A program made the translations under genes and the position numbers. Below are positions 2,252-58,091 of a stretch of DNA of 64,000 bases, piece by piece. Below the pieces are notes generated by a model, which did not search any database, was not told the origin of the DNA, and saw nothing but the letters and a program-made list of their open reading frames with translations. Source of the stretch: an uncultured Rhodospirillaceae bacterium (GTDB taxonomy: Bacteria > Pseudomonadota > Alphaproteobacteria > Rhodospirillales > UBA2165); contig CAZMHI010000011.1 of the NCBI GenBank assembly GCA_964566055.1, positions 25,851 through 89,850 of the forward strand, in the 5' to 3' direction. Every line of letters starts with the position of its first letter. Within the stretch, counting starts at the first letter, position 1.

Positions 2252-2395
2252 CGCTCCGATAAAGAATGAAGTCGGGTTGTGCTTTAAGATATCGGCTTTT
2301 TTTCTGGCGACATCAGCAAAATGATCAAGTGTATCAATATAAATTTGAGTAATCCCGTCATTGAAGCTGATCCTATATGTCTAGATCAGCAAAGC

Positions 2396-34346: not shown

Positions 34347-34356
34347 GGACGTCGCC

Positions 34357-38353: not shown

Positions 38354-38365
38354 CAGTTCAGCCCC

Positions 38366-39133: not shown

Positions 39134-39145
39134 CTCAGCCCCTCC

Positions 39146-39958
39146 CTATTTCAACTTGGCCAAATAATCGACCAGCATTTCAAGCTCGCTGGCATAGAGC
39201 TGAGTGCCGTAATCTTTCGGCATTAAGTCTTTTTCATAGCCTTTGGTCAGTTCTGCATTCGGATCAAGGATCGATATTCTGATATGAGCGGCGGAACGAA
39301 GTGCGCCGATTTTTGTCAGATCAGGTCCTTGCTCGCCTTCATCTTCACCGACTTTGTGACAAGCGCCGCAGCCGACCTCTGAAAGGATATCTTCAACGCT
39401 TTCATACGGTTTGCGTTGCTCCTCTTCCTCGTCATCCGCAGCATCACCGGCGTCTTCCGGAATTTCGACCGTAACCTCGACACCACCCAATTGTTGGAGG
39501 TAAGCGGTAACAGCGGCAAGCTCGACTTCGTTGAGACCGATACTGCCGGTTGAAGCATCCGGCATCGGGCTGACCGCATCATTGGTGCCTTTTTTACCGA
39601 AGCCAGCGACCACAAAAGCCGACGGTTTGACCATCGATTCCATGACGTAGCTTTCAACATCTGTTGCTTCGCCCTTATAGCGTGGGTCTTTGAGACGCGC
39701 TGCGGTGACGGCCGCTGTTTTTTCAAGCAATGGGGCACGGCCGCCAAGCGCATTGTGGCAGAGCGTACAGGTGCCCTTGCCTTTATATAATTTTTCACCG
39801 AGCGCCAGGAATTGATCCATGGTCAAAGAGCTGAGATCGACTTTCTCCTCGGTCGGCGGTGGCGCGGGCTCGATCCGGGGAATACCGAAATTAGCAAATC
39901 CGGCAAATAGGCCAACGACCAGCACGCTAAAGAAAGCGACTTTCAGGAAATTTTTCAT
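39146..39958 (-). CDS. Membrane-anchored di-haem cytochrome c (module 1)
   Basis: 270 aa with an N-terminal anchor and CTLCH and CGACH motifs. ATGA overlap with the upstream CydA-like gene. Confidence 0.75.
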   Translation of the reverse strand: MKNFLKVAFFSVLVVGLFAGFANFGIPRIEPAPPPTEEKVDLSSLTMDQFLALGEKLYKGKGTCTLCHNALGGRAPLLEKTAAVTAARLKDPRYKGEATDVESYVMESMVKPSAFVVAGFGKKGTNDAVSPMPDASTGSIGLNEVELAAVTAYLQQLGGVEVTVEIPEDAGDAADDEEEEQRKPYESVEDILSEVGCGACHKVGEDEGEQGPDLTKIGALRSAAHIRISILDPNAELTKGYEKDLMPKDYGTQLYASELEMLVDYLAKLK

Positions 39959-41850: not shown

Positions 41851-41872
41851 TCTGCTACGCGCCTTCAAATCT

Positions 41873-42318: not shown

Positions 42319-42708
42319 CTAGCCTGCCTTACCTTTACACTTACACAGACCACGCAAATACTTGATCAAGCCATTGGCATCGGCGTCTGAGATCGTCTTA
42401 CCCCAGGGCGGCATCAATGGTGATTTACTTTGCGACGGGCCGCCATCCATGACGATGCCGCGGATATAATTATCTGTGAGCTTGCTCATCTCTTTAGCAT
42501 TGGTGAAATCCCGCGGTGTAACCGGGAAATCCTTGGTCACATTGGGGCCCTTGCCTTTGCCTTCGAGGCCATGACATTGGGCGCAGTAGAATCTAAAAGT
42601 TTCTTCGGCTCCCGCTGCTTTTGCAGTTTCAGTGTTAATAAACCAGGCCAAGCCAAATACGGCGGCCAGGAGAGAAATTTTGCTTAGTTTTTTCATTGCT
42701 CTAGCCAT
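42319..42708 (-). CDS. Periplasmic mono-haem cytochrome c
   Basis: 129 aa. Signal peptide and CAQCHGLEGKGKGP. Alternative ATG at 42696 with better SD spacing. Confidence 0.8.
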   Translation of the reverse strand: MARAMKKLSKISLLAAVFGLAWFINTETAKAAGAEETFRFYCAQCHGLEGKGKGPNVTKDFPVTPRDFTNAKEMSKLTDNYIRGIVMDGGPSQSKSPLMPPWGKTISDADANGLIKYLRGLCKCKGKAG

Positions 42709-42710
42709 CC

Positions 42711-43373
42711 TTATTTGAGGTTGCTGACATGTTTAGCGACGTTTTTGAGATCCTTATCCTTCAAAATACCCGCGAAGGTCGGCATCGCTTTGAACGGTTT
42801 GAAGTGAGTGGGATTTTTCAAATAGGCGTAAATCCAATCGGGGTTGAGCCGTTTGCCGACGCCAACCAAGGTTGGGCCGCTGAAGCCACCGGTAATCTTG
42901 CCTTTTTTGCTGGCCGATTGATGACAGCCGGTGCAGGGCATTTTCTTGGTGAAAATCTTTTTACCTTTAAGACTTTTCTTTGGCTTAATAACACCCGCTT
43001 TAACTTCGCCGGTGGTTTTACTCATCAGGAAGTCAGCAACATTGGCGGCATCGCCACCGGATAATTTCGGATGGTCGCCCGCGTTCTTTTTGGTCAGCGA
43101 GTTATAAGCCAAATGGCGGATCGGTTTTGGGTCCTGGAGCCAGCCCTTGAGCCAGGCTGCCTGGAACTTAGATCCTGCATACCAGAGTTCAGGGCCTTTT
43201 TTGGCCATTTGGTCGGCAATGCTTTTTTCTTTAGCCGGACCCTCGGTATAGTGGCAACCGGTACATTTTTGAGCTTCGAAGGCAGCTTTACCAGCGCCTG
43301 CGTCAGCATGTGCCGCACCAGCGACAAAGCCGAAGAGGCTCATTGCTGCAATTGCAGATATGATAATTTTCAT
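42711..43373 (-). CDS. Periplasmic di-haem cytochrome c
   Basis: 220 aa. Signal peptide and two CTGCH motifs. Confidence 0.8.
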   Translation of the reverse strand: MKIIISAIAAMSLFGFVAGAAHADAGAGKAAFEAQKCTGCHYTEGPAKEKSIADQMAKKGPELWYAGSKFQAAWLKGWLQDPKPIRHLAYNSLTKKNAGDHPKLSGGDAANVADFLMSKTTGEVKAGVIKPKKSLKGKKIFTKKMPCTGCHQSASKKGKITGGFSGPTLVGVGKRLNPDWIYAYLKNPTHFKPFKAMPTFAGILKDKDLKNVAKHVSNLK

Positions 43374-43410: not shown

Positions 43411-45075
43411 TTATGCCGGTTTAGCCTGCGCCTTTTTCATCAGCCAGAACCCTAATCCGCCTGTGATCAGGAAGGCCAAAATCGCATAGACATAAACTTC
43501 CATCGGCGTCGGCGCTTCAAGAAAGACGAAATGCCACGTCGACAAACTCATAATTTTGCCATGCTCACCGTTCGAACCATCCCAGGCATTGATCGACATG
43601 GGAATGAACTTACCGGCACTAAATTGAATATCGTTACTGTCTTCGGTAACCAGCGGACGCTTCATGACAACGCGCCAGCGGCCGTCTTTCCACTCCGAAG
43701 TGGATGTAACCTGTTGCTGATCTTTGGCTTGCGCCCGGGCTGGTTGCTGGTAGCCGCGTGCGGTTGCTTCCTCAGCACCCGATTTAGCTTTTTCCGCCAG
43801 ATCAGCTTTCCAAACCCAGAGATTAACCGCATTGGAAGAACTGCCGCGGAGGAAATGGGGCTTCTTGGTGCCGGGCTTAAACTTGGCCGGGAATTGCAAA
43901 GCCACCGAATCCCGGAAGGTTTCAAGAGCACGCGGGATCATATCATTGGCGGCAACATAAGAATTATAGGCGCCAACTTTGCTGATATCCGCAGTCTTGA
44001 ACTCCTTGTCCTTTTTGTGAGTGATGTCCTTGAAGGGATCATCCCACTCCATCAGGAAAGAGATTTCTTTGTCGTTGAAGGCCGCCTTGATAGTGACCAG
44101 TTCAATGCCCGGATTCTGCCAGCGGGGAGCCGCAACAACCTGGCCGGCCAGACGCATATCCATCGGCTCGGCTGTCTGCCAGGCCTCATCATCCGGTTTA
44201 GCGGGTACGTCACCTTCAACTTTTTTGGCTTTGAGCACTTGATGAGAGGTCGGATTATGCTGCAGTGATTTGATGAAATTAGCCAACGCCCAGCGGTCTT
44301 CATTAGAGAGCGCCTTAGCGAAGGACGGCATCGGCGTGCCGTTAATACCGGTCGAGAAGCGCATATAAATATCTTCGACGTTGCTGCCGCCTTTAATCTT
44401 CCAGGGCAGCGTGACGTTACGAATACGGATCGGGAAACCCCAATCATCTTTACGGTCAAAAGCTTTCTGGCCATTACCCCGGCCTTGCTTGCCGTGACAT
44501 TCCCAGCATTTTGCTTTGAGGAAAATTTCTTTACCCTTGGCGACAAGCTCTTCGCTATAGGGCGGCAGATTTGATGGCAGCGTGACCAGCTTATTGGTCT
44601 TAATCGGATCAAGCTCTTCGTCATCAAATTCCTGAGCGAAAGTTTTGATATATGCAATAACCTGCCAGCGCTTCTCTTCGCTCAAGCCATTTTTAATAAT
44701 ATCGCTATCAAACGCCTGCATACCGGTGCCTTGGAGGCCACGGCTGACAGTGCGGAACAGATCAGCATCGGTCGGCAGTTCACCCGACTGGGTTTTCCGG
44801 AACTTAAAGGTACCGAGGGTGAAATCGCGGGGCCGTGGATCCATATAATCGGCAGCCGGTCCGTTGCCATCGCCCAACAGGCCGTGGCACATGACGCAGC
44901 GGCGGGAGTAGATTTCCCGGCCTTTTTCAACAAAAGCTTCTGTCGCTTCCGGCATTGGCTTGGCGGCAACATCGGCTGCTGAAACCGGCGTGGCAATAGA
45001 GGCCGATAAGGTAAGCACTGCAGCAGCGAAAGTGAATTTCAAAAATGTCACTATATTTCTTAAAGTTCCTCGCAT
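43411..45075 (-). CDS. Di-haem cytochrome c fused to an EB_dh/DOMON-like domain and a C-terminal TM anchor (module 2)
   Basis: 554 aa. CVMCH and CWECH. EB_dh-like motifs (DSVALQFP, VNLWVWKA, DGRWRVVMKRPL, INAWDGSNGEHGK). C-terminal TM. Paralogue of 36830..38353. Confidence 0.75.
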   Translation of the reverse strand: MRGTLRNIVTFLKFTFAAAVLTLSASIATPVSAADVAAKPMPEATEAFVEKGREIYSRRCVMCHGLLGDGNGPAADYMDPRPRDFTLGTFKFRKTQSGELPTDADLFRTVSRGLQGTGMQAFDSDIIKNGLSEEKRWQVIAYIKTFAQEFDDEELDPIKTNKLVTLPSNLPPYSEELVAKGKEIFLKAKCWECHGKQGRGNGQKAFDRKDDWGFPIRIRNVTLPWKIKGGSNVEDIYMRFSTGINGTPMPSFAKALSNEDRWALANFIKSLQHNPTSHQVLKAKKVEGDVPAKPDDEAWQTAEPMDMRLAGQVVAAPRWQNPGIELVTIKAAFNDKEISFLMEWDDPFKDITHKKDKEFKTADISKVGAYNSYVAANDMIPRALETFRDSVALQFPAKFKPGTKKPHFLRGSSSNAVNLWVWKADLAEKAKSGAEEATARGYQQPARAQAKDQQQVTSTSEWKDGRWRVVMKRPLVTEDSNDIQFSAGKFIPMSINAWDGSNGEHGKIMSLSTWHFVFLEAPTPMEVYVYAILAFLITGGLGFWLMKKAQAKPA

Positions 45076-46040
45076 TATTCAGACTCCGGAATTCGGGGAG
45101 TCTTTTCGGCGAGGTCGTATTCCGCCAAAATAATCTTCCACCGTTCTTCATCGGTGAGGTTTTTCTTCCATTCCGGCATGGCCGAATCCCAAGGCGTTGC
45201 CTCGGTTGGCAGGCCTGGGCCGCCATTCATAACCCGCCAGAAGGTGTAACCTTCGACGATGGTTTCAATGGTGCCGTTATCGGTGAAGTTGATCGGGCGC
45301 AGTTTAAAGCCGTCAGCCATCGGGCCGTCACCGGCAACGCTGTCGCCATGGCAGGGGCGGCAGTTCATGGCGTAGAGTGTGCGGCCTTCATAGAGATCGA
45401 TTTGATGCAGCACTTCCTTGGCAGACGCTTCGGTGATTTTTTCAGCTTTTAATTCAGCCAGCAGTTTCTTAACTGATTCACCCGGCAAAAAATCTAAGGT
45501 ATGATCCGGATCAGCCTCTTCTTTCCAGGCATCGATGTCTTTCTGCACTTGCGGAATGAAGGTGATTTCATCCTCCTTAACCTGTTCGATAAAGGCCTTA
45601 ACCCGGTCTGGGGTCGGCTCGTTGTAAGGATTTTTCATGCTTTCAAATTTCTTGGGAAAATTTGATGATGGATGCTGGATGCGGAGACTCGACGGCAATT
45701 GCACTTTCGGCACGGTAATGTCATAGACCTGCCAGCCGATGACGGCCGGCACCGCGACCAGAACTGCCAAGCGAAAGGCCTTGGTGTACTCGCCCCGCAG
45801 CATTTTCCGGATCGGACCCCAGAACTCTTCCATGAATTCATCAGAAAATGTGACCAAAGCAAACAGTGCCACGCACGTTAGGGTCATATAGATAAAGACC
45901 AAGGTGCCCGGCACGGTCAGCGGAAAGGGCAACGCGGTAATACTGCGGGAAACCGCCGGGATTACCCATTTAACAATGCCGTAGAACACCAAAATAGTCG
46001 CGACGACAGACCAAAAACGATTTATTTTAAATTTACTCAT
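45075..46040 (-). CDS. Three-TM-anchored mono-haem cytochrome c (module 2)
   Basis: 321 aa. N-terminal TM helices and CRPCHGDSVAGDGP. Paralogue of 38366..39133. 1-nt stop/start overlap with the downstream gene. Confidence 0.75.
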   Translation of the reverse strand: MSKFKINRFWSVVATILVFYGIVKWVIPAVSRSITALPFPLTVPGTLVFIYMTLTCVALFALVTFSDEFMEEFWGPIRKMLRGEYTKAFRLAVLVAVPAVIGWQVYDITVPKVQLPSSLRIQHPSSNFPKKFESMKNPYNEPTPDRVKAFIEQVKEDEITFIPQVQKDIDAWKEEADPDHTLDFLPGESVKKLLAELKAEKITEASAKEVLHQIDLYEGRTLYAMNCRPCHGDSVAGDGPMADGFKLRPINFTDNGTIETIVEGYTFWRVMNGGPGLPTEATPWDSAMPEWKKNLTDEERWKIILAEYDLAEKTPRIPESE

Positions 46041-46055
46041 CTTTGTTCATCCGCC

Positions 46056-47039
46056 CTATTTTTTCTTGCCTTTTTGCATCAACATGAAGGAAAGAACATC
46101 TTGATAGTCCTTCACCGTCATTTCTTCCGATAGATCATCCGGCATGATGCTTAAAAGTTTGTCTTGAGTGATTTCCTTGATGTCGGATTTCTTAATTGAA
46201 ACTTCGTCGCCATCTTTGGTAACGAGTTCAACGGCGCCGTCTTCTTCACCCGCTTTGAGGCCGACGACTTTGCGGCCATCTTTTTTAACTACGACAAACG
46301 TCTCAAAGCCTTTTGTGATACTTTTTGCCGGCTCAAGGATGGCTTCAGAAATAAACTTGAGCCCCTTAGTTCCAACTGTTGAGAGATCAGGTCCGACATC
46401 ACCCGGCTCACCTTCAAGCGAATGACAATCGCCGCAAGTTTCTTCATAGACTTCCTTGCCATGCGCCGGATCACCACCACCAGCCGCCGAGGCGACAGCG
46501 ATTTTACCGTAAAACCCTTGCGTGATTTCGCTCGGATTGTTGATCTCAGCGATATCAAATTCACCGCCTTGCGCTTGCATATAAGCGGCTGTCGCCTTGA
46601 TCTCATCCAGGCTCAGGGAGATCGGCGGGGCATAGACCACCGCCATTTCATTTTTGTATCCTTTGACGACGTAGGCACCGGGATCACTCAGGCTTTCAAC
46701 TATGTAATCAAGCGCCGTATACTTCTTGCCGGTTTTTTCCGAGCGTTCCTTAGCACGTTCAACCGCACGGGCACCCATCGGCAGCGGGAATTTTTCACCG
46801 AACTGACCGTGATTGGGACCACGCACCGCACTGCCCCGGTCACCAACTGAGTGGCAGGTGAAGCAGCGGCCTTTGCCCCAGTAAATCGCTTCGCCGCCTT
46901 CCGGTGTAACTTCAACTGCACCGGTCGCAGCAGCTTTTTTCTCGCCGCCCGTTAATTTGGTGACGGAATGGCCGACCCAGTTAAAGACGCCGAAAACCAC
47001 CAACAAGAAGATAAATACTTTTCCAACAGCTTTTGCCAT
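46056..47039 (-). CDS. Membrane-anchored di-haem cytochrome c with a Planctomycete/Verrucomicrobia-type haem-binding C-terminal domain (module 2)
   Basis: 327 aa. Anchor, CFTCH and CGDCH. The tail ILEPAKSITKGFETF...LSIMPDDL...DVLSFML resembles the PVC-type CxxCH domain. Confidence 0.7.
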   Translation of the reverse strand: MAKAVGKVFIFLLVVFGVFNWVGHSVTKLTGGEKKAAATGAVEVTPEGGEAIYWGKGRCFTCHSVGDRGSAVRGPNHGQFGEKFPLPMGARAVERAKERSEKTGKKYTALDYIVESLSDPGAYVVKGYKNEMAVVYAPPISLSLDEIKATAAYMQAQGGEFDIAEINNPSEITQGFYGKIAVASAAGGGDPAHGKEVYEETCGDCHSLEGEPGDVGPDLSTVGTKGLKFISEAILEPAKSITKGFETFVVVKKDGRKVVGLKAGEEDGAVELVTKDGDEVSIKKSDIKEITQDKLLSIMPDDLSEEMTVKDYQDVLSFMLMQKGKKK

Positions 47040-47050
47040 AGAGTTATTCC

Positions 47051-49243
47051 TTACTCGCCCGGCTGTTCGCTGGCGGTGGGTGATGGTTGGACTTCAAGTT
47101 CATCGTGATCACCCTCATGCTCATGGGCGACCAGGCTGCCGATCCAGAACATAAAGGCAATGCCGATCATAAAGACGACGAAACTCATGCCGACCATTTG
47201 GGTCATGGTGAAATTGCTTGGGGTAAAGGACCATTCCGAGGTATCGCGCATGATGCCAAAGATGTGCCAATCACCGCGGAGACCTGAGCGAATAAAGCCC
47301 ATCAGGCCCATATTCAGCGTGATCACAAAGGTCAGCAGCAAGAGTGCAAATTGGCTGCGGGTGGTCATCTTGCCCCATTCCATGGGACCGATTTCCTTGG
47401 CAGATCTAAAGAGGTAAAGATCAATCGCAGTGACCAGGATCAAGCAGGCAATCAATTGCAGGAACTGAGCAACAGCAACGTTCCTCAAGAACGGTGAAGC
47501 CTGTTCCATCACCACAAAGCCATAGACACCTAAGAATATCGTCACATTAAAGGCCGTTACCGCCATATAGAGGTATTGCGCAAATTTACCCCGGTCGCGT
47601 AGCGCCAGCAGCACCGATATCACGGCTACAACACAGTTAAAGATCAAGAGATAGCCGACGGTACGGAAAAACTCAGCCCGGTCAGCCGGCAGATCGAGAT
47701 GCGCCGGATCCATGGTGATCAACGTCACCGCATACTGGCCGACGATAAAGACCGCCAAGGCGCCAGCCAGGGAAATTACTACTGCCGGCGCGCGGCCTTG
47801 CTGTGAAATCGGCACAATGTCGCTTTTATTGCCACGCCGGTACAGCAGGAAACTGAAGAAGGTCGCCAGAATAATCAAATTGATCACGGCGTTCTTAGCC
47901 GGCATCAGGCCTAAGAATTTAAGTGTCGGATGATATTGCGAGCCGCCCATTTCACTCACTTCCTGACCGGTCAACGGCAGGTTGTGCGGAGTCAGCCAGA
48001 CGGCGAAGGAGACACAAAGCGCAAACAATATATATTTGATGTATTTGTAATAGCGATCAGAGCCCGGAATACGGGTCATACCACTCCAAAGATAGTAGTT
48101 GGTGATCAGGAAGATCGAGCCCACCAGCAGCGCCTGAATGATAAAGGTCCAGGAAAAGTCGCCGCCCATCATATTGTTACCCATGACGGCACTGTTGGAA
48201 TAAACCTCGCGACCGAGATAATAACCGGCAAAGGGCAGCGGGATCAGGGCGGCAATAGCAACCAGATTGGCGATATAGCCCATCCAGTCGTAATGGGCTT
48301 TGTCCGCCTGATTCTTGGAGCCGATAAATTTCACGGCGGCATAGGAGCCTGCGACCAACCCACCAAAGGCCAAATTGCCAAGCATGCGGTGGACGGCAAT
48401 CGGTGTCGCCAGGATATTTTCAAAAGCCACCCAAACATGACCGGTTAAGCGGCCGGCCTCATCAACACCAGCCGGGCTCATCATGAAACCAGCCATTGAG
48501 TTGGCGGCCATCATGATTGCCGTACCGACAACGTTCAACATGATACCGATGAAGATGTGCGTACTTTTGAGGTCCTTCATTATATAGAAACCGATGGACA
48601 TCGGCAGCAGATACAAGAGCGCCATAAACACCCGAGTATCACTGCGCATTTCCCAGCCGATAACATCGAAGAAGAACAGGACAGTTACAATAAACAGCGC
48701 CACGCCAATGGCTTTGAAAATCATCTGCAAACGCGCGCTATAGGGCGCACGGTTCTTCATGGCGTTCCAGCCATAGTAATAAATATAGAGCGCAAAAGTT
48801 TCAAAGAAGAACAGTATTGCGTAGACAAACATGACGTCTTTGAAAGTGCCCGCCATATAGCCCATGAATGTCGGGTAGAGCGAGAATAAGGCAAAAGCCA
48901 GCATACCGCCAAAGGCCGCCGTGGTTGCGTAAGCAACGCTTAGCAAGCTGGTAAATTCATACGCCAGCTTGTCGTAACGCTGGTCATTACTGCGCCAGCC
49001 GACAATTTCGATGATGACAGCGAACAACGGTACACCCAGCACGAAAGCACCGAAAAACAGATGCATTTGCGCCAGGAACCAGACAACTTTCCGGGAATCT
49101 AGTCCCAGAACCTGGCGGTAGACATTGGCTTCCTGCGCCAGGGCTGGAAAAGCGAAGAATACAATCGCAATGAGTGCGCCGGCTATGATGGCCCGGCGAC
49201 GCCTCGCATTGGTCAAGAAAATGGGTTCACGAGATGACTGCAA
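47051..49243 (-). CDS. Cytochrome bd subunit I (CydA)-like polytopic membrane protein lacking a Q-loop (module 2)
   Basis: 730 aa. TTG start with a GGAGTAGG SD. AQMHLFFGAFVLGVPLFAVIIEIVG, ANSMAGFMMSPAGVD, AVHRMLGNLAFGG. Paralogue of 39955..41850 with long shared stretches (YYKYIKYI, NL.ILATF.SFL.YRR.NK). Confidence 0.7.
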   Translation of the reverse strand: MQSSREPIFLTNARRRRAIIAGALIAIVFFAFPALAQEANVYRQVLGLDSRKVVWFLAQMHLFFGAFVLGVPLFAVIIEIVGWRSNDQRYDKLAYEFTSLLSVAYATTAAFGGMLAFALFSLYPTFMGYMAGTFKDVMFVYAILFFFETFALYIYYYGWNAMKNRAPYSARLQMIFKAIGVALFIVTVLFFFDVIGWEMRSDTRVFMALLYLLPMSIGFYIMKDLKSTHIFIGIMLNVVGTAIMMAANSMAGFMMSPAGVDEAGRLTGHVWVAFENILATPIAVHRMLGNLAFGGLVAGSYAAVKFIGSKNQADKAHYDWMGYIANLVAIAALIPLPFAGYYLGREVYSNSAVMGNNMMGGDFSWTFIIQALLVGSIFLITNYYLWSGMTRIPGSDRYYKYIKYILFALCVSFAVWLTPHNLPLTGQEVSEMGGSQYHPTLKFLGLMPAKNAVINLIILATFFSFLLYRRGNKSDIVPISQQGRAPAVVISLAGALAVFIVGQYAVTLITMDPAHLDLPADRAEFFRTVGYLLIFNCVVAVISVLLALRDRGKFAQYLYMAVTAFNVTIFLGVYGFVVMEQASPFLRNVAVAQFLQLIACLILVTAIDLYLFRSAKEIGPMEWGKMTTRSQFALLLLTFVITLNMGLMGFIRSGLRGDWHIFGIMRDTSEWSFTPSNFTMTQMVGMSFVVFMIGIAFMFWIGSLVAHEHEGDHDELEVQPSPTASEQPGE

Positions 49244-49286: not shown

Positions 49287-50069
49287 TTACTTGGCCTTAA
49301 AGGAGAAATTTGCAGCTGCTTTGCCGCCTCCCTTGACGGTGACTTTTGATTTAATGACACCGAGACGCGGATGCCATGCCTTGACCGTGTATTTGCCCGC
49401 TGGAACGTTATCCAATGAATACGATCCATCATCTTTAACAACAACAGCATAGGGATTTTTTGGAGCCATCATGTAACCGAACATGAAGTTGTGAGCTTCA
49501 CAGTTAATGGCAATGTAAGGAGAGCGGCGCGGTTTCAAATCTTGTTTGATGTCGCCTGGATCAGGCTGGCCAAAATTGAACATTGTGCGTTTGACGACGC
49601 GTTTCTTTTCAACGCCAATCATTTCGCGCGTGTTGATATTGTGCAGTACGCCTTTGTCACTGTTGCGGATAATTACCGGACCGGGCTGAATAACTTGCGC
49701 CCAGGGAGTGAAACGGCATTTTTCCTGATTGATCAGATAATTACCGCCTTTGGGCTTACCCCATTTTTTACCGGCTTTGATTTTATGAATAAAGACGAAA
49801 GTGCCGCGAAGGGCACCATCTTTAACATCAATCCAAACCACTTCCCGCTCACCTTTACCGCAGACTTCGGGGTTTTTAGTGATCAGGATTTTTTCGACAC
49901 CGTCAGCAGGCACGGCGCCACTGAAAGTAACTTTACCAGCGATGCTGCCGCCATTTGATACGGCACCTGCTTTATATTTGGATTTGGCCGCCAAGGCATC
50001 TGTGGCAAGAGCAGCAGTAATTAACGCGCCGGCTGCAGCTACAACTGCTATTTTCGATGAGAATTTCAT
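49287..50069 (-). CDS. Periplasmic cupredoxin-like (type-1 Cu ligand pattern) protein with a CarboxypepD_reg-like C-terminal domain
   Basis: Signal peptide. GVLHNIN ... INCEAHNFM gives the H...C-x2-H-x2-M ligand pattern seen in amicyanin. The C-terminal segment DDGSYSLDNVPAGKYTVKAWHP is CarboxypepD_reg-like. Confidence 0.55.
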   Translation of the reverse strand: MKFSSKIAVVAAAGALITAALATDALAAKSKYKAGAVSNGGSIAGKVTFSGAVPADGVEKILITKNPEVCGKGEREVVWIDVKDGALRGTFVFIHKIKAGKKWGKPKGGNYLINQEKCRFTPWAQVIQPGPVIIRNSDKGVLHNINTREMIGVEKKRVVKRTMFNFGQPDPGDIKQDLKPRRSPYIAINCEAHNFMFGYMMAPKNPYAVVVKDDGSYSLDNVPAGKYTVKAWHPRLGVIKSKVTVKGGGKAAANFSFKAK

Positions 50070-50189: not shown

Positions 50190-52520
50190 TTACTGCGCAA
50201 TATTCCCTGAATTTATGACCCCGAGAATTTCAATCGCGACCTGCCATTCACGGCGGCGGTTTTCATCTTCAATCACGGCAATAAGCGGGGGATTTGCTTT
50301 CTCAGCACCAATTTTGCGCATTAATTGAGCCGCCTCCAGCCGGTTATAACCTTCCTTGGCGAAAGCAAAGTTGAGAATTTGCTCTAACGCGGCATCACCT
50401 TTTAAAGCAACGAGCGCTTCGGCGGCGGCGAGGCGAACAGAACGTTCGTCATCGTTAATCAATTGGTCGAGCTGCTTAATTTCAACGCCCATATTGCTAA
50501 GGGCATTGATAACTTCGGTTTTGACGAAACTGTCACCGTCTTCGAGACGATGCGCCAGAAATCCGGCACCATCTGCAGCTTTGGCAGCGCCGAGAGCCCG
50601 CACGGCCAACAACCGGCAATCGCGCTCTGAATTCGCCACGACCCGCATCAGAGCAGCAACTGCGTCTTTCGGCAATGCATCTAAGCTTTCACCGATTTGC
50701 ACCAGCGAATCAAGGGCTGCCAAACGAATTTGCTCACTGCCATCTTCGATATTTTGCGCCAGCGCGGAAGCGACGTCGTCGCCCGGCACTTCACCCAGCA
50801 CCCGGGCAGCAAATTGCGGTACATCCTTATACGCAGGTGTTTCTTCAGCCAGCCGGACCCGGCCTTTGCGCGGTGTTTGCGCCGACAGCGCCAGCATTTC
50901 CATATCTGTATCGGTCAGATGAATGCGGTTTTTCTTTGAGTCACTTAGCTCCGCCATGCGGCCTTCTTTGGGACCATCCTCGCCCATGATGGCGCCCCAG
51001 GTCGAGGTTGGAAACTCTTCGTCTTGTTCTTCAGCCAGCTCTTCGCCTAATTCTTCGCTTGGCTCTTCTTCAGTAATTTCTTCAGAATTTTCGGCATCGT
51101 CGTCGGTTTCGATTTCCTCGTCATAAGGCGCCAAAGAGTCTTTCTGATCAACCGGTTCTTCCGGCAGCGGGGTGATTTCGGCGTTTAACGCAGCGATCAA
51201 AATATCACGGGCTTGATCCGCAGTTTCTTTAGAAACAGCGAGTTCACCCAAAGCGGCTATAGCATCGAAGCGAATTTGGCGATCTGGCGCCGTTAGAGTC
51301 TGGCCGATTGCCGCAACAGCTTCTTCGGTAGCGATCATTTTGAGCCCTCGCAAGGCACCCAGGCGCACCGCTTCAGGCTGTTCTTGATTGGCAAGAATTT
51401 CCAGCAATGTCGCACCGGCAATGGCACCACCTAAAGCAGCATAGGCTTCCAAGGTGACAGCAACCACTGCTGGCTCATTGCTACCAATTATGGTTTGGAG
51501 TTTCGCGCTTAGATCATCATCAGTTTCAACGCCCTGGATCGTCATCAAGCGCTTGAGGACAGCAATTTTGACCTCACCCGCCGGATCATCCAGCCATGAT
51601 TTCAACTGATCCACATCGTTTTCATCGACCTGCGATATAGCGAGAGCGCGAAGCTCCGGTTCTTTGTCGTTGAGCAGAGTTTCGCAAATTTGATCATTGA
51701 AACTATTGCTGTTCAGCGCCTCGGCGATGGCCAGGCGAACGTCTTTTGCCGGGTCTTTGAGACCATGGAGCACGGCTTTCCGCGCCGCGTCATGATCAAT
51801 ACCGGCAAGCACAACAGCTGCCCGGCGGCGGCGGCGGGAATCTTTATCTCCTAAGTAATCAACCAAAGCGCCGGCACCTGCCGCACCCATGCGGGCAAAG
51901 GCAGCAAAAGCAAACTCGGTCAAATCTTGCGCATCTTCTTCATTGATAGCGGTTACAATTTCGGGCACGGCATCTTCGACACCGAATTCTGCCAGGGCCT
52001 TGATCGCCGCGACCTGCAGATCAACCCAGCTGTCCCAGCCGCCTTCATAAAATTCATCTTCGTCCCAGGCAATCTCTTCATCGTGCCATTTTAGCAGGCG
52101 CTTTAGCCAAGGGATAACTTCGGCGGATTTCATTTTGGTCAAAGCGTCGACCGCCGCCATTTTTACTTCGCTGCACGGATCGCCAATAAGATTTTCAAGC
52201 AGCTGTTGCGAAGCCCGCCTATCACCAATTACCGCAAGTGCTTCGGCAGCGTCGGTGCGTACGTCTTCATCTTCATCCAGCAGAGCTTCAATCAGCACTT
52301 TAGTGGCTTGATCAGATTTAATCTCACCCAGCGCGCGCGCTGCCCCGCAGCGATGCACATCGACACTGTCACGCAATAATGCAGATAAAGCGTCGATCAC
52401 ATCAGATATTTTTTCTTGTTGAATGTTACTCTCCATAATGCCGTCGCAATCAGCCGGTGAACTGTTGTTCACCGGCTGGTTTGACGAAGGTAACATTTCT
52501 TCCGCAGTAAGCGAAGACAT
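50190..52520 (-). CDS. Large HEAT/PBS-lyase-repeat protein with an acidic linker
   Basis: 776 aa and no signal peptide. Reiterated ...VR..AA.ALG.IGD..A...L...L.D... repeats. Acidic stretch EEIETDDDAENSEEITEEEPSEELGEELAEEQDEE. Starts 2 nt after the molybdoenzyme stop. Confidence 0.7.
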   Translation of the reverse strand: MSSLTAEEMLPSSNQPVNNSSPADCDGIMESNIQQEKISDVIDALSALLRDSVDVHRCGAARALGEIKSDQATKVLIEALLDEDEDVRTDAAEALAVIGDRRASQQLLENLIGDPCSEVKMAAVDALTKMKSAEVIPWLKRLLKWHDEEIAWDEDEFYEGGWDSWVDLQVAAIKALAEFGVEDAVPEIVTAINEEDAQDLTEFAFAAFARMGAAGAGALVDYLGDKDSRRRRRAAVVLAGIDHDAARKAVLHGLKDPAKDVRLAIAEALNSNSFNDQICETLLNDKEPELRALAISQVDENDVDQLKSWLDDPAGEVKIAVLKRLMTIQGVETDDDLSAKLQTIIGSNEPAVVAVTLEAYAALGGAIAGATLLEILANQEQPEAVRLGALRGLKMIATEEAVAAIGQTLTAPDRQIRFDAIAALGELAVSKETADQARDILIAALNAEITPLPEEPVDQKDSLAPYDEEIETDDDAENSEEITEEEPSEELGEELAEEQDEEFPTSTWGAIMGEDGPKEGRMAELSDSKKNRIHLTDTDMEMLALSAQTPRKGRVRLAEETPAYKDVPQFAARVLGEVPGDDVASALAQNIEDGSEQIRLAALDSLVQIGESLDALPKDAVAALMRVVANSERDCRLLAVRALGAAKAADGAGFLAHRLEDGDSFVKTEVINALSNMGVEIKQLDQLINDDERSVRLAAAEALVALKGDAALEQILNFAFAKEGYNRLEAAQLMRKIGAEKANPPLIAVIEDENRRREWQVAIEILGVINSGNIAQ

Positions 52521-52522
52521 CG

Positions 52523-55195
52523 TTAGATGATATCCCGCGGTGCGAAGGACATAGTCCGGAAGGTTTTCTTATATGGCGATTCGCCGATCTTCTTAACTTT
52601 TGCGGTACCCATTTTGTAATTGTAGTTACCACTAATCCAATCGACAATCCGTCCCTCCAAAGCATTCGCAGGTTGTTGCGTATGCAGGAAATCCATATAA
52701 AGCATGCCTTTTTTGATATGACGCGTGACCATGGCGACACCGGTAACGGCGGCACGGGTCAGCTCGATATTTCCGGCTTTCATCTGACCTGAGAAGGAAT
52801 AGTCAGAACCTTCAACGCCAAGTATCGTCTCTTTAAGACTTGGTACCCGGTCAGAGTAGACCATCAACATATCACCGTTTTCGATGCCGCGTTTCTTGGC
52901 ATCATCGGGATGGATTTCGACATAGTTGTCAGGCCAGCGTTGAACGATATAAGGCCGGCGGCGGTCATCAAAGCCGGATTGCCAACGTTCATTGGTCCGT
53001 CCTGAAGAACACCACATCTCATCACCGCGCGGTTTCATCCATTCCCAATAATCCGAGAACAGATTCCACGGCGACTTCTGAATGTTGCACTTACCGGTTT
53101 GGCTGTTGAAATGGGTCAACTTCTTGTTGAACACATTGCTGGCCTCCGGACCGGTTGCACTCAGCTTGCGAGTCGTATCATGCAGGCGCTTGGTACCGAC
53201 CAGTTTTCCTTCTTCGGTTAAGAATACAGGTCCCTGGATACCGTTAGTGCCAAACTCCCGCATTTTCTGATGCAAGGTTTTGCCTTCACGTTGGGCGACC
53301 ACTTTGATCTGATGGAAGTCTTTGCGGCTGCCCCGCGAGAAGCGTGACATTTCCTCAGCAACCTCATTGGAGTTTTTCCAATCAAAGCCTTCAAAGCCCA
53401 TCCGTTTGGACAATTGGGCAATGATCCACCAATCCGGTCTCGCTTCGCCCGGTGCATCATAAAATTTCTGATACAGGCGCAAACGGCGTTCGCCATTAGC
53501 CCGCATGAAATCTTCTTCGCCCCAGGTTGCTGCCGGGAAGATGATATCGGCATACCGGTTACCAATCGGATCGACCAGATAAATTTCCTGGTTGATTACG
53601 ACCATACCACCGGAATCAGCGCGTTTTTTCAAGGTATCAATGATATCCTGCTTATCGTAGGACCGAACCTGATTTGGATTGGCGACGGTTAGTTCATGGA
53701 ACCGCTTGGCCAATTGCTGCGAGCCGCACATGGATTGGATCCACGTCGTACCGATGACATGAGCCAAACGGGTGTGACCCGACATGGTGTAGGTATCAGT
53801 ATCCAAGGCGCGACGACGGCGACCTGGCAACTTCATTGGCGATTTGTTACGCGGATATTTACCGCCACGTTGACCACCACGCTGGTGTCCACCGGCCCGG
53901 CCAATAACCTGACCCGGACGGCCACCGGCACCAACGATGATACCAAGAGCGGAAATCGCCTGGGTGTTACCGGTATTGTTCGACCAGTAGAAACCTTTCT
54001 CGATCATGATCGAGGTTTTCGGGCGCTTATTGCCTTTAGGTTTCGCCATCCATTCAGCGGCTTTTTGGATTTTCTTGGCATCAACACCGGAAACTTTAGC
54101 TGCATTGGCAAGTTTGAACTCGTCCTGCTTGAGCAGCCATTTTTTCCAATCTTCATAGCCATTGGTCTGGAACTTGCCCCAGGTCGTCCGCCATTGCCAC
54201 GGTGTATTACGCGTGCCTTGGCCGAAGCCCGAAGATGAGCCCCACTTGTTGTTGACCCAGTTTTTGATCCACTCTTTATCCTGCCAATTATTTTCAGCAA
54301 TGATCCGAGCAATCGCATTAACCACCAAGAGGTCGGTGCCTGGATTTACGTCGAGCCAGAGACCGCCATTCTTTTCAGCATAAGCGACACCGGCAGTTCG
54401 GCGCGGCACCATAAAGATGGCTTTCTGGCCGTTTTGGATACCTTGCATGATCCATTGAGTGAACAAGATGGTCTTGGTCTCATAGGGATCAGTACCGCAA
54501 ATCAGCAATGTTTCGGCGTTCATCCAATCTTCGTAGGCCGGACCGAAGTTATCAAAGCCCGCATCCCGGAAACCAGGTGTAGAGCTCACATCTGATGGCG
54601 TATCATGGAAGGTAAAGTTCGCGGTGTTGACGTGACGCAGCGCGTATTTGGTAATCGCGTAGGTGTTTTCCAGATACTGATAGGAATAGGTTTTAACACC
54701 ATAAGCATTAGCGCCGTGATTATCGATGACATGCTTGCCAACCTCGGCAGCGATATCGAGAGCGAAATCCCACGGTACCGGTTGCAAGATACCGAAAATC
54801 CGCACCATCGGTGATTTCAAACGATCACGTGTCGGTGTCTGCGGATTGTAGACCTTCTGCGCAATACAGCCGCCACGAAGACTTGAATCACCGCCTTTAT
54901 TAACGAACTTTGCGTCTTTATCCGGGATCACTACGACGTGGTGCGGCTTATCATTATGCAGCACGATATTGTGCTGGTTCGGTGCCACCCAAGGACCCAG
55001 CGGATTGACCGGGAAGTCTTCACCAAAAGCGTTTTCGCTCGCCTTGGCGCCGCCTTTGCCATTGCCGGCTACCGGCCAGCGGTAAACTTTAAGACCGCAA
55101 GCGACAATACAATAGTCGCAAGCCGTGGTAATGACCTCAGCTCCCTTAGGAGGAAGAGGGACATTGGTTTCTGGAATGTAATATGGAGTAGCCAT
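52523..55195 (-). CDS. Molybdopterin (bis-PGD) catalytic subunit of the arsenite oxidase AioA / iodate reductase IdrA clade
   Basis: 890 aa. N-terminal C-x2-C-x3-C (TTACDYCIVACGLKVYRWP) as in the AioA 3Fe-4S site, with no own Tat signal. AioA-like segments (VVIPDK, SSLRGG, AYEDW...CGTDPYETKT). Confidence 0.8.
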   Translation of the reverse strand: MATPYYIPETNVPLPPKGAEVITTACDYCIVACGLKVYRWPVAGNGKGGAKASENAFGEDFPVNPLGPWVAPNQHNIVLHNDKPHHVVVIPDKDAKFVNKGGDSSLRGGCIAQKVYNPQTPTRDRLKSPMVRIFGILQPVPWDFALDIAAEVGKHVIDNHGANAYGVKTYSYQYLENTYAITKYALRHVNTANFTFHDTPSDVSSTPGFRDAGFDNFGPAYEDWMNAETLLICGTDPYETKTILFTQWIMQGIQNGQKAIFMVPRRTAGVAYAEKNGGLWLDVNPGTDLLVVNAIARIIAENNWQDKEWIKNWVNNKWGSSSGFGQGTRNTPWQWRTTWGKFQTNGYEDWKKWLLKQDEFKLANAAKVSGVDAKKIQKAAEWMAKPKGNKRPKTSIMIEKGFYWSNNTGNTQAISALGIIVGAGGRPGQVIGRAGGHQRGGQRGGKYPRNKSPMKLPGRRRRALDTDTYTMSGHTRLAHVIGTTWIQSMCGSQQLAKRFHELTVANPNQVRSYDKQDIIDTLKKRADSGGMVVINQEIYLVDPIGNRYADIIFPAATWGEEDFMRANGERRLRLYQKFYDAPGEARPDWWIIAQLSKRMGFEGFDWKNSNEVAEEMSRFSRGSRKDFHQIKVVAQREGKTLHQKMREFGTNGIQGPVFLTEEGKLVGTKRLHDTTRKLSATGPEASNVFNKKLTHFNSQTGKCNIQKSPWNLFSDYWEWMKPRGDEMWCSSGRTNERWQSGFDDRRRPYIVQRWPDNYVEIHPDDAKKRGIENGDMLMVYSDRVPSLKETILGVEGSDYSFSGQMKAGNIELTRAAVTGVAMVTRHIKKGMLYMDFLHTQQPANALEGRIVDWISGNYNYKMGTAKVKKIGESPYKKTFRTMSFAPRDII

Positions 55196-55207
55196 TAGTC
55201 GTCTCTC

Positions 55208-55810
55208 CTAACCTTGTAGATTATCTAAACGGCCATAAATCAGGCCGAATATGGCGACAGCGTAGATATTGTCGCCTTGAATTTCGAGCAGCACCTGTGG
55301 CAGGCTTTGATAGGCCTGACCGGAAATCAGAATACCGTGTCGCGTCAGATCATAGGTCGACAGGTGCAAGTTGCAGGCACCAAGCGATTTGGTATCCCCC
55401 TTATAGGAGCCCGTCATGTCACCGCCCTGATGGGTACAGGTATAATTGAAGGCAACAATGTCCTTATTCGGTCCAATACCGCCACCGGCTTCAACACCAA
55501 GCTTGACGATCATCGATTCTGAATAGGCACCGCTATCGGGATAGCTGAAATCAATCGGCTTATCCGTTTTCAACTGGCTCAGTTTAGCCACCAGCTTGCG
55601 GGGATAAGTTGCGACCATCGCCGGTACCTTGGCCATGCCGGGACCGGCACTGACCATGGCGACTGTCGTAACACCCGAGGCAAACAGGAAGTCACGGCGG
55701 GACATCAGGCATTTGCCATGACCCTTTTCTTTTTTCACCACACTGCCTTTACTCTCAGGAGCCTCAGCGATCTCTGGGGTGATTAGTTCGGTTTTAGTTT
55801 CTTTATTCAT
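55208..55810 (-). CDS. Tat-exported Rieske 2Fe-2S small subunit (AioB/IdrB-like)
   Basis: 200 aa. Twin-arginine motif SRRDFLF. Rieske ligands CTH-(18 aa)-CNLH. Good SD (GGAGTGAGGA). Confidence 0.8.
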   Translation of the reverse strand: MNKETKTELITPEIAEAPESKGSVVKKEKGHGKCLMSRRDFLFASGVTTVAMVSAGPGMAKVPAMVATYPRKLVAKLSQLKTDKPIDFSYPDSGAYSESMIVKLGVEAGGGIGPNKDIVAFNYTCTHQGGDMTGSYKGDTKSLGACNLHLSTYDLTRHGILISGQAYQSLPQVLLEIQGDNIYAVAIFGLIYGRLDNLQG

Positions 55811-55834
55811 GATTTTATCCTCACTCCTAGCCCA

Positions 55835-56953
55835 TTAATCGAGGGGCGCATAAGGTGGAATTTTAGGCGTCGCCATTTTGATCTCATCACCGCTCAGAGA
55901 TTCGAGAAAAGCCACGAGGTCTTCCTTTTCTTCATCCGAGAGATTCAGAGGTTTCAAAAGCTTGGTCTTGGTTGCGAACTCGTTCTTGCCGCCACCATCG
56001 TTGTAGAAATCAACCAGCTCTTCCAAATCAAAAAACGATCCGTTGTGCATATAAGGCGCTGTGTAAGCGATATAGCGCAGCGGCGGTGTCCGGAATTTAC
56101 CCTTATCGGCTTTTTCTTTAGTCCGATAATAGAGGCCAGCATCATCCTTGATCGAACGATACATTTTTTCCGTCGTGCCTTTGCCATATTGCTGATAGCG
56201 GAAGGTAATTTGCGCCAAGCCGCGCGTCAGCCATTCTTCAGCCCGCGGCACACCGAGATTGTAATATTTCTGGTCGGTGAGTTGCGGTCCGTTATGACAT
56301 TCAATGCAATTGGCTTTGCCTTTGAACAATTTTAGGCCGCGTACCTGTTGTTCGGAGAGCGCTTTTTTGTCGCCACGCATATATTTGTCAAACGGCGTAT
56401 TGTTATGGATCAAAGTCCGTTCAAACGCCGCCATGGCACGCCAGACATTGTTTACCCGCGGCCAGCGGTCGCCGAAGATTTCACGGAAGGCTTTGACATA
56501 TTCCGGCACGAAAGCTAAGCGAGCTTCGATGACGTCGCGTTCACCGTTACCGGAAAGCGCGCCCAAGGCCGCAGATGGCGCTTGGTTTTCAAGCGATTTC
56601 GCCGAGCCCGTCCAGAACAACTTGCCGAGATAGGCGGAATTGACCACGGTTTGGCTGTTGCGCCAGTGGATGGCGCCGGGATAGCCGCGTGAAATCGGAT
56701 CATTAAAGCCCCAGCCTTGGGTCGGAGAATGACAATCGGCACAGGATACCGACGCATCGCCACCAATCCGGGGATCGAAGAACAGTAGTTTACCGAGAGC
56801 AGCTTTGGCGGCGGTCTGCGGGTTGTCCGCCGGGATCGGCGGTTTGCCTAAGGCAGCCAAAGGTGCGTTTTTATCAGCCATGGCGCTACCGGCGAAGCCG
56901 ATCAATGCCAAACCTACAATGAGTGCAAAAGTAATTTTTTTCATGGTTTTCAT
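55835..56953 (-). CDS. Di-haem bacterial cytochrome c peroxidase (IdrP-like)
   Basis: Signal peptide after the ATG at 56953 (AGGAG SD). CADCH and CIECH in CCP/MauG spacing. The track ORF extension to 57031 overlaps the upstream gene. Confidence 0.8.
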   Translation of the reverse strand: MKTMKKITFALIVGLALIGFAGSAMADKNAPLAALGKPPIPADNPQTAAKAALGKLLFFDPRIGGDASVSCADCHSPTQGWGFNDPISRGYPGAIHWRNSQTVVNSAYLGKLFWTGSAKSLENQAPSAALGALSGNGERDVIEARLAFVPEYVKAFREIFGDRWPRVNNVWRAMAAFERTLIHNNTPFDKYMRGDKKALSEQQVRGLKLFKGKANCIECHNGPQLTDQKYYNLGVPRAEEWLTRGLAQITFRYQQYGKGTTEKMYRSIKDDAGLYYRTKEKADKGKFRTPPLRYIAYTAPYMHNGSFFDLEELVDFYNDGGGKNEFATKTKLLKPLNLSDEEKEDLVAFLESLSGDEIKMATPKIPPYAPLD

Positions 56954-56963
56954 CTCACGGCTC

Positions 56964-58091
56964 CTAATTGCGCTGCTTGAGCCAATTTTTGATGGGTTTA
57001 TAATTGACGTCGATTTTATCTTTCCAGACATGCTGGGCGCCGGTTAACGGCTTACCAGACAGCGATTCGAGGAAAGCAACCAAATTGGAGCGCTCTTCTT
57101 TACTGAGGCCCAAAGGCTTGATCCGGGGATCTTTATTGACGTCGTTGCCACCGCCATTGTTGTAGAACTCAACAACACCTTTCAGAGTTTTGATCATGCC
57201 GTTATGCATGTAAGGTGCAGTTTGCTTAAGTTCCCTCAAGGTCGGGGTCATGAACTTGCCGATATCTGAGCCATCGGCTTTGTGCGTGCGCACATGAGCG
57301 CCAACGTCACGGCGGATATTCATGATATTTTCTATGCCCATAAAGAGGCCAAAAGCCACATAGGTCATATGACGCAAAGGTTTCCGCCAAATATCAGGAT
57401 TGTTCGGCACGCCGGTGTTGTACGGCTGATCATCGGTAAAGCGATTACCGGAATGACAAGAGACACAGCCGGCTTTGCCTTTAAACAATTCAAAGCCACG
57501 CTTAGCGGCATCGGTCATTTTACCTGCATCGAAAGCTGAACCACGGGAGGTTAAGGTTTTCAGATATTCCGGAATGGCTTTACGAATTGAACCGTTTGAG
57601 GGTTCGCCATAGCCGGCATCTTTAAACATCTTCACATAGATCGGATCTTGTTTGACGCGTTCCTGCATCAACCGCATATCCATGTTCATGTTATAAGTCT
57701 CGGTAATAGATTCACGCGTCACATCGTTCAGGTTGGTACCTAAACGGCCATCGTGAAACCATGCTGCCCGCTGCGCCGTATTGATAAGTGTCGGCGTATT
57801 ACGAAAGCCGGCACTGCCGGGATAGGCTTTTGATAACTCAAGCCCGTCAGCAAAACCTTTTGAGGGAATATGGCAGGTGGAACAGCTGATAGCAGCATCT
57901 CCAGAAAGGCGCGGATCAAAAAACAGCCGCTTACCCAAAGCTGCTTTTTTAGCGTCGACTTTCGGCGCCTTAACGGGGCCAAACCCGTTAGCCGAAGCAG
58001 ATGATGCATTAACAATAAGACCGAGCGTAAAAACGCTGGCCGCGAAAACACTTAGTAGTTTTCCAATTGAATGGATACGTCGATAGATCAT
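56964..58091 (-). CDS. Di-haem bacterial cytochrome c peroxidase (IdrP-like), paralogue of 55835..56953
   Basis: ATG at 58091 with a GGAGG SD. Signal peptide. CSTCH and CVSCH. First gene of the cluster. Confidence 0.8.
   Translation of the reverse strand: MIYRRIHSIGKLLSVFAASVFTLGLIVNASSASANGFGPVKAPKVDAKKAALGKRLFFDPRLSGDAAISCSTCHIPSKGFADGLELSKAYPGSAGFRNTPTLINTAQRAAWFHDGRLGTNLNDVTRESITETYNMNMDMRLMQERVKQDPIYVKMFKDAGYGEPSNGSIRKAIPEYLKTLTSRGSAFDAGKMTDAAKRGFELFKGKAGCVSCHSGNRFTDDQPYNTGVPNNPDIWRKPLRHMTYVAFGLFMGIENIMNIRRDVGAHVRTHKADGSDIGKFMTPTLRELKQTAPYMHNGMIKTLKGVVEFYNNGGGNDVNKDPRIKPLGLSKEERSNLVAFLESLSGKPLTGAQHVWKDKIDVNYKPIKNWLKQRN

Follow-up and report, generated by a model that had tools for sequence, protein, structure and literature searches.

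Closest described systems

The iodate reductase Idr has been described as the product of an island of four genes, with poorly conserved surroundings, in which two genes for di-haem cytochrome c peroxidases (CCPs) accompany those for a Rieske subunit (idrB) and a molybdopterin catalytic subunit (idrA). The conserved synteny of the two CCP genes with idrBA serves as the criterion that delimits the Idr clade, and Labrenzia alba and Ruegeria halocynthiae are listed carriers of the island (Reyes-Umana et al.). Azonexus hydrophilus NCP973 is one of five isolated iodate-respiring bacteria (PMC13455634); Denitromonas iodatirespirans IR-12 and Pseudomonas sp. SCT, which also possess IdrABP1P2, are isolated iodate respirers as well. 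Here we analyse a stretch of 64,000 nucleotides, hereafter the window (assembly GCA_964566055.1, contig CAZMHI010000011.1, positions 25,851 to 89,850 of the forward strand), from an uncultured marine alphaproteobacterium. Four genes at positions 52523-58091 of the window very probably encode an Idr-type iodate reductase of the periplasm; they are followed by a long run of electron-transport genes, which resembles a module of nitrite-oxidising bacteria and is discussed below as a possible partner of the reductase.

Several idr clusters of marine bacteria have been characterised. Three aerobic marine Alphaproteobacteria that carry them (Roseovarius azorensis, along with Notoacmeibacter marinus and Aliiroseovarius sediminilitoris) reduce 2 mM iodate in static low-oxygen culture; in the active gel band of R. 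azorensis, IdrA (WP_093034476.1) ranked first among the proteins, and its four idr genes were induced 59-102-fold by iodate, which was effective down to 0.1 uM, and also by low oxygen (Kine et al. 2024). In ocean metagenomes, idrABP1P2 was found in 41 genome bins, mostly of SAR324 and Alphaproteobacteria, which form a clade apart from the isolates. The idrABP1P2 genes of one alphaproteobacterial bin from an oxygen-minimum zone (OMZ) and of one SAR324 bin conferred iodate-to-iodide reduction on E. coli, and idrA genes and transcripts peak inside OMZs, where iodide accumulates (Li et al. 2026). Iodate reduction in OMZs controls the iodide that reaches the sea surface, and hence the iodine that enters the atmosphere. 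The potential of the iodate/iodide couple is about +0.72 V at pH 8.1. The delivery of electrons to Idr has so far been modelled only; in the Denitromonas model they arrive via the bc1 complex and a soluble cytochrome c.

The second system of relevance is the gene set that flanks the periplasmic nitrite oxidoreductase (NXR). This set comprises an alternative NxrC, mono- and di-haem cytochromes c, cupredoxin-like proteins and a bd-like oxidase, and is conserved in Nitrospina, Nitrospira and anammox bacteria (Kuenenia); the bd-like oxidase has 14 helices and aligns with CydA at its N-terminus only (Lucker et al. 2013). In Nitrospira the module is duplicated and highly transcribed; roles suggested for it are the anchoring of NXR and a connection to the quinone pool, and for a related bd-like paralogue that of a terminal oxidase (Mundinger et al. 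2019).

The four-gene core

The core genes lie on the minus strand and are listed here in their 5' to 3' order:

56964..58091, minus strand: first di-haem CCP gene, idrP type, 375 aa (CSTCH and CVSCH; Pfam CCP_MauG, E 3e-38)
55835..56953, minus strand: second di-haem CCP gene, idrP type, 372 aa (CADCH and CIECH; Pfam CCP_MauG, E 6e-42)
55208..55810, minus strand: idrB, Rieske [2Fe-2S] small subunit, 200 aa (Pfam Rieske and TAT_signal; TIGR02694, 117.8 bits)
52523..55195, minus strand: idrA, molybdopterin catalytic subunit, 890 aa (Pfam Rieske_3 for the 3Fe-4S cluster, Molybdopterin and Molydop_binding)

The gaps between them are 10, 24 and 12 nt. The first CCP gene starts with an ATG at 58091, preceded 9 nt 5' by GGAGG and followed by a Sec-type signal peptide; gene callers picked the same 375-aa start in identical metagenome contigs, and the longer open reading frame (ORF) of 385 aa with a GTG codon probably does not mark the real start. 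IdrB carries the twin-arginine motif MSRRDFLF and the Rieske ligands C-T-H and C-N-L-H, 18 aa apart. IdrA contains the segment TACDYCIVACG, i.e., C26-x2-C29-x3-C33, and has neither a signal peptide nor a twin-arginine (RR) motif. In its domains it fits the branch of the DMSO reductase family to which AioA is related. These are the features from which the sequence-only reading had started (a 200-aa partner with SRRDFLF and CTH-18aa-CNLH, an 890-aa subunit with C-x2-C-x3-C that lacks a twin-arginine translocation (Tat) signal of its own, and two di-haem CCPs directly upstream), and all of them were recovered in the ORFs and in the Pfam matches.

Iodate reductase or arsenite oxidase

The order CCP-CCP-Rieske-Mo is that of the idr cluster on a plasmid of A. 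hydrophilus NCP973, which we found, together with the arsenite oxidase (aio) locus of Pseudorhizobium banfieldiae NT-26, by tblastn of a plasmid collection. The Azonexus and window clusters share the four genes and their order, the cofactor motifs and the pattern of Tat and Sec export, and they are orthologous position by position at 44-55% identity: the best match of each gene is the Azonexus gene in the same position (44%, 55%, 54% and 49% for the two CCPs, IdrB and IdrA, respectively). IdrA is about 49-49.8% identical to its Azonexus counterpart and only about 28-28.5% to AioA of NT-26, whereas for the small subunit the corresponding values are 54% with Azonexus IdrB and 39% with AioB. The AioBA enzymes of NT-26 and Alcaligenes faecalis belong to the same family and fold and share with the window pair the 3Fe-4S motif and the Rieske partner with a Tat signal. 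Their surroundings differ, however: the NT-26 locus holds aioX, a kinase gene and aioR and has no CCP gene, whereas the window has no aioXSR-type genes and two CCP genes.

The alignments with AioA separate the two enzymes at the active site. The AioA segment 'FDHGGAGGGYENTWG' aligns with 'YSY----QYLENTYA' of the window IdrA. The AioA active-site residues, which we take to be H195, E203, R419 and H423 in A. faecalis numbering, are retained in part: the first His is replaced by Tyr172 next to a deletion of four residues, the Glu is kept (E176), and so are R433 and H437 of 'RAGGHQ'. The loop 'DHGGxGGG(Y/F)EN' of AioA thus reads 'SY----QYLEN' in both the window IdrA and the Azonexus IdrA, and 'GGHQEG' of AioA becomes 'GGHQRG', an E-to-R change. 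The suggestion made by eye in the sequence-only reading, that YSYQYLENTYA corresponds to this region of AioA and that the preceding His-containing loop is absent, is therefore borne out. The loop deletion excludes AioA but does not prove Idr, because it is also common to the intermediate groups that lie between IdrA and AioA. A further peculiarity of the marine clade is a strongly basic insertion (RGGQRGGKYPRNKSPMKLPGRRRR) at about residues 439-462 of IdrA, after 'GGHQ', where AioA has a short acidic stretch; this insertion may help to attract an anionic substrate.

The phylogenetic position was assessed with a distance-based neighbour-joining (NJ) tree (200 bootstraps), which holds few validated sequences. 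The window IdrA falls inside a marine alphaproteobacterial clade with 100% support. Its next neighbours are Vibrio and a Mariprofundaceae bin (100%), followed by Azonexus and Thiothrix (80%); several uncharacterised groups at 37-42% identity come next, and AioA lies beyond them, with 96-100% support at the intervening nodes. A place inside the AioA clade with the arsenite-pocket residues retained, which the sequence-only reading had named as one result that would speak against its proposal, was seen neither in this tree nor in the alignment. The proposal itself, an IdrAB-type enzyme and not an arsenite oxidase, finds support in gene order, orthology, the tree and the published members of the clade. 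Its variant, a sister clade with an unknown substrate, stands in one respect: the marine clade is distinct from that of the beta- and gammaproteobacterial isolates. The part that concerned the substrate does not stand, since iodate reduction has been shown for members of the clade (Kine et al. 2024; Li et al. 2026).

The distribution of the cluster was examined in a locus scan for IdrA relatives with one genome per species, which returned at least 477 relatives, the best 80 loci being compared. The best 80 relatives are all from marine Alphaproteobacteria, at 77-96% identity, the closest (96%) being from the Rhodospirillaceae genome bin SI053_bin63; in addition, 19 marine metagenome contigs encode an identical 890-aa IdrA. 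Among the 73 of these 80 loci that do not end upstream at a contig end, the four idr genes occur in the same order in every one. IdrA is 77-78% identical to that of the published island carriers L. alba and R. halocynthiae, and 75-86% identical to sequences from Roseovarius sp., Thalassovita taeanensis, Ruegeria, Labrenzia and Arabian12_MAG_54, the last of which (85%) belongs to a set of Arabian Sea bins. The marine alphaproteobacterial Idr systems of R. azorensis, N. marinus, A. sediminilitoris and the OMZ bin Fu_MAG_99 belong to the same clade by taxonomy and share its marine low-oxygen setting. Three deeper relatives at 37-40% identity possess the Rieske and Mo subunits and no peroxidase genes; the peroxidase pair thus marks the Idr clade. 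These three loci (L089, L090 and L091) stand between IdrA and AioA and have the shortened active-site loop, and in the Acidimicrobiales locus L091 genes of the plastocyanin/azurin family adjoin.

Automatic annotation points the other way. NCBIfam arsenite_ox_L (TIGR02693) matches IdrA at 407.9 bits, above its cut-off of 359.05 bits, and the IdrB score likewise exceeds the cut-off of arsenite_ox_S (TIGR02694; 95.65 bits). The closest solved structures to IdrA are those of AioA, and the public product name of the homologues is 'arsenate reductase (azurin) large subunit'. Since the Azonexus IdrA, which belongs to an iodate respirer, bears this very name, neither the model scores nor the product name discriminate between the two enzymes. 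For the core, what changes is chiefly the annotation: arsenite oxidase is the name given by public records and NCBI family models, iodate reductase the one to which the evidence points.

The equivalog models TIGR02693 and TIGR02694 are in this sense an annotation trap, in that they give the Idr subunits (52523-55810) the name arsenate reductase (azurin).

By analogy with the described systems, IdrA, with its Mo cofactor and 3Fe-4S cluster and lacking a signal peptide, would be exported in folded form, bound to IdrB with its Tat signal. In the periplasm IdrAB would reduce iodate, in the published models to hypoiodous acid and then to iodide, and the two di-haem peroxidases would clear hydrogen peroxide or another reactive oxidant that forms on the way.

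Several points tell against the assignment and temper our confidence in it. Compared with IdrA of an isolated iodate respirer, the window IdrA reaches only about 49% identity, and its iodate-reducing activity is predicted from relatives. Among validated IdrA sequences, the distance-based tree and the identity comparison cover that of A. hydrophilus NCP973 only. In R. azorensis, activity in crude extract was below detection and was seen only as a gel band, and iodate did not support anaerobic growth of the tested marine aerobes, for which the authors suggest a role of Idr as an electron sink (Kine et al. 2024). In the E. coli experiments, some reduction also took place with the empty vector, amounting to about 28% of the iodate (Li et al. 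2026). On balance, the core is a further member of a kind already described and tested, and by itself of modest interest; the unexpected part of the locus is the module of the nitrite-oxidiser type that follows.

Genes downstream of idrA

The run of genes on the same strand continues past the idrA stop with tight spacing, and comprises the following:

50190..52520, minus strand: HEAT-repeat protein, 776 aa, no signal peptide (Pfam HEAT_2, E 2e-55)
49287..50069, minus strand: secreted or periplasmic 260-aa protein with a probable type-1 copper domain and a C-terminal beta-sandwich (invariant motif, AlphaFold2 model)
47051..49243, minus strand: cytochrome bd-like membrane protein, 730 aa, many transmembrane segments (CydA match at residues 51-202 only)
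46056..47039, minus strand: membrane-anchored di-haem cytochrome c, 327 aa (TIGR02603 domain; two CxxCH)
45075..46040, minus strand: membrane-anchored mono-haem cytochrome c, 321 aa (one CxxCH)
43411..45075, minus strand: fusion of a di-haem cytochrome c and an EB_dh haem-b domain, alternative-NxrC-like, 554 aa (Pfam Cytochrom_C and EB_dh)
42319..43373, minus strand: two soluble c-type cytochromes, 220 aa (di-haem) and 129 aa (mono-haem)
36830..41868, minus strand: second, paralogous module with a bd-like protein of 637 aa, cytochromes c of 270 and 255 aa, and a di-haem c plus EB_dh protein of 507 aa
31038..36510, minus strand: possible maturation genes, namely a universal-stress protein (USP) with four PCP_red domains, a radical-SAM/SPASM protein of the NirJ/AhbD-like type, a HemY-like protoporphyrinogen oxidase and SCO1

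The ATG of the HEAT gene lies 2 nt after the idrA stop, which in the Azonexus and NT-26 loci is the position of moaA or a molybdotransferase gene; the cytoplasmic HEAT protein may help to mature IdrAB, which is a guess. The window further differs from Azonexus in that the latter has a sensor kinase and a sigma-54 regulator upstream and a small cytochrome c gene and moaA downstream of its cluster, all of which are absent here, whereas the window has the HEAT protein and the long electron-transport operon after idrA. A sigma-54 promoter was looked for 5' of the first CCP gene and none was found. Scans of the window for sigma-70 promoters and terminators did not rise above shuffled controls, so that operon boundaries are judged from spacing; a weak terminator-like hairpin lies at 42043-42023, 3' of the soluble cytochromes.

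With the probable copper protein in the place of the cupredoxin, the components of the module match the NXR accessory set item by item, and the module is duplicated as in Nitrospira, the comparison being one of description and architecture together with the Kuenenia matches given below. Like the NXR-linked oxidase, the 730-aa bd-like protein resembles CydA at its N-terminus alone (Pfam E 1e-11; PDB 5DOQ_A, E 5e-11) and carries many additional helices; in the two types of paralogue, seven His residues and E148 do not vary. The 554-aa protein finds its best PDB matches in Kuenenia proteins, the di-haem cytochrome 6H5L_B (E 5e-56) and NxrC (7B04_C, E 1.6e-10), and scores 97.7 bits with TIGR03477, below the cut-off. 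The second module is 45% identical to the first, and in many related loci the soluble cytochromes c likewise follow the module. Unlike that of NXR, the window module is linked to an enzyme of the AioA/IdrA type and not of the NarG/NxrA type, occurs in Alphaproteobacteria, and has the HEAT protein in place of a TorD-like chaperone. Our literature search found no paper that ties idrA to a bd-like protein, a cupredoxin, a HEAT protein or NxrC, although such papers may exist.

The genes at 31038-36510 possibly belong to the maturation of the idr system. The NirJ/AhbD-like radical-SAM/SPASM protein, too, ends in a PCP_red domain, and its gene and the USP/PCP_red gene accompany idr in many further loci. 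Together with the HemY-like and SCO1 genes they hint at a special maturation of haem and copper.

A probable copper protein of 260 residues

The 260-aa protein is annotated merely as 'carboxypeptidase regulatory-like' and has 693 homologues at E <= 1e-5. In 44 homologues, some as little as 34% identical, residues H143, C190, H193 and M196 never vary, and the last three form the motif C-x2-H-x2-M, the spacing of which is that of amicyanin. Sequence and profile searches of PDB and Pfam revealed no cupredoxin and only the C-terminal beta-sandwich. The AlphaFold2 model (pLDDT 79.4) is mostly beta; a Foldseek search with the whole model gave no match at E <= 0.001, the nearest candidates being amicyanin (1MDA_A) and auracyanin (6KOL) at a Foldseek probability of 0.99 and an E of about 0.03, with target TM-scores of 0.62 and 0.53, respectively. 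The model and the invariant residues suggest that the protein probably represents an unrecognised family of blue-copper proteins.

Linkage of the module to idr

Among the 69 of the best 80 loci with enough downstream DNA, a HEAT homologue is linked to idr in 59; it is also found in the Mariprofundaceae (zetaproteobacterial) bin and is absent in Azonexus and Vibrio. The probable copper protein and the bd-like module were counted in the 45 loci with long flanks. Both adjoin idr in 20 of these and neither does in 23; the 260-aa protein occurs by itself in two, and the module is never found without it. Two arrangements of the module were seen, one with it downstream of idr and the other with it upstream. 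The paralogue of the second type (36830..41868 in the window) is the one that sits upstream of idr in other genomes; the window holds both copies. Because two gene orders exist, selection on the linkage is indicated rather than a single shared ancestral arrangement, and a linkage that survives rearrangement points to a functional connection without proving one.

From this linkage we infer that the reductase of this lineage is probably fed by an electron path of its own, and not by bc1 and a soluble cytochrome c. In such a path, the quinol pool or a different donor in the membrane would supply electrons to the bd-like membrane protein, from which they would pass through the two membrane cytochromes c and the di-haem-c/haem-b protein to the putative blue-copper protein, which would hand them to the Rieske centre of IdrB. 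The tight same-strand spacing after idrA, the co-occurrence in two arrangements, the Kuenenia matches in PDB and the invariant H/C/H/M residues are all consistent with this scheme. In its full form, in which IdrAB is wired by its own blue-copper protein to an NXR-type complex of bd-like protein, alternative NxrC and cytochromes c, as one arm of a dedicated respiratory chain of pelagic low-oxygen Alphaproteobacteria with electron flow in either direction, we offer it as a tentative proposal, quite possible but somewhat short of probable.

There are counterweights to this proposal. The linkage is the sole evidence for the path, and the bd-like family has no known function. Around half the related genomes have idr but not the module, every cultured one (Ruegeria, Roseibium and Labrenzia) being among these, and the cultured alphaproteobacterial carriers that we examined have at most the HEAT gene. 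The cupredoxin assignment, finally, draws on a motif and on weak structural matches.

If the proposal holds, the complex would be a general membrane partner of soluble, high-potential periplasmic molybdoenzymes. In its most radical version the chain could carry electrons from iodide to oxygen, and would then be a biological origin of iodate in the sea. The occurrence of an NXR-type module beside a second, unrelated periplasmic molybdoenzyme offers an independent context in which the module could be tested.

Alternative explanations

The alternative that survives best is that idr encodes the iodate reductase, and that the HEAT gene, the copper protein and the bd-like/cytochrome modules form a separate island for respiration at low oxygen. 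That Azonexus and Vibrio, like the cultured Alphaproteobacteria named above, have idr without the module agrees with such a separation, as do the activity of four-gene clusters alone in E. coli and the published definition of the island as four genes in a poorly conserved setting; moreover, the limits of the operon are not established, the promoter and terminator scans having been no better than chance. A merely adjacent island fits less well with the 2 nt that separate the HEAT gene from idrA, with the placement of module and copper protein beside idr in two gene orders, or with the absence of any locus among the 45 that holds the module alone. A further point against it is that this accessory set accompanies another periplasmic molybdoenzyme in three lineages that are not related. 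We consider this explanation possible, though on the doubtful side.

A second alternative retains an Idr-like enzyme and assigns it a role other than iodate respiration: the reduction of another oxyanion, service as an electron sink or detoxifier, or the oxidation of iodide or another donor, whose electrons would travel via the copper protein and the cytochromes to the bd-like protein in the role of an oxidase. Enzymes of this family are often reversible. The linked module accompanies the oxidising NXR and is discussed there as a possible terminal oxidase or link to the quinone pool, an SCO1 copper chaperone and haem-maturation-like genes lie downstream, and the marine clade stands apart from the isolates that respire iodate; the failure of the tested marine aerobes to grow anaerobically on iodate, and the electron-sink role suggested for them, are also in keeping with it. 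This alternative is nevertheless unlikely. The idrABP1P2 genes of the OMZ alphaproteobacterium brought about stoichiometric conversion of iodate to iodide in E. coli (Li et al. 2026), the R. azorensis genes respond to 0.1 uM iodate and to low oxygen, and idrA genes and transcripts are most abundant in the OMZs in which iodide builds up. At the potential of the iodate/iodide couple, oxidation with scarce oxygen would yield little energy, and the sequence gives no pointer to another substrate.

The weakest alternative, a bona fide arsenite oxidase (AioBA) that stands by chance beside two peroxidase genes, has in its favour the equivalog models, the public names, the nearest structures, and the AioBA-like cofactor layout and hitch-hiker export, but is highly improbable and was rejected on identity, the replaced active-site loop, the locus and the tree.

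Other genes in the window

At 1529-5202 (minus strand) the window encodes the large subunit of a NirB-type NAD(P)H nitrite reductase and a formate/nitrite transporter, which belong to assimilatory nitrogen metabolism; no sign of respiratory nitrate reduction was seen in the window. A third di-haem peroxidase (CCP_MauG) gene adjoins a gene for a response-regulator adenylate/guanylate cyclase at 14695-16813 (minus strand), and a CHASE5 hybrid histidine kinase is encoded nearby (17315-20245).

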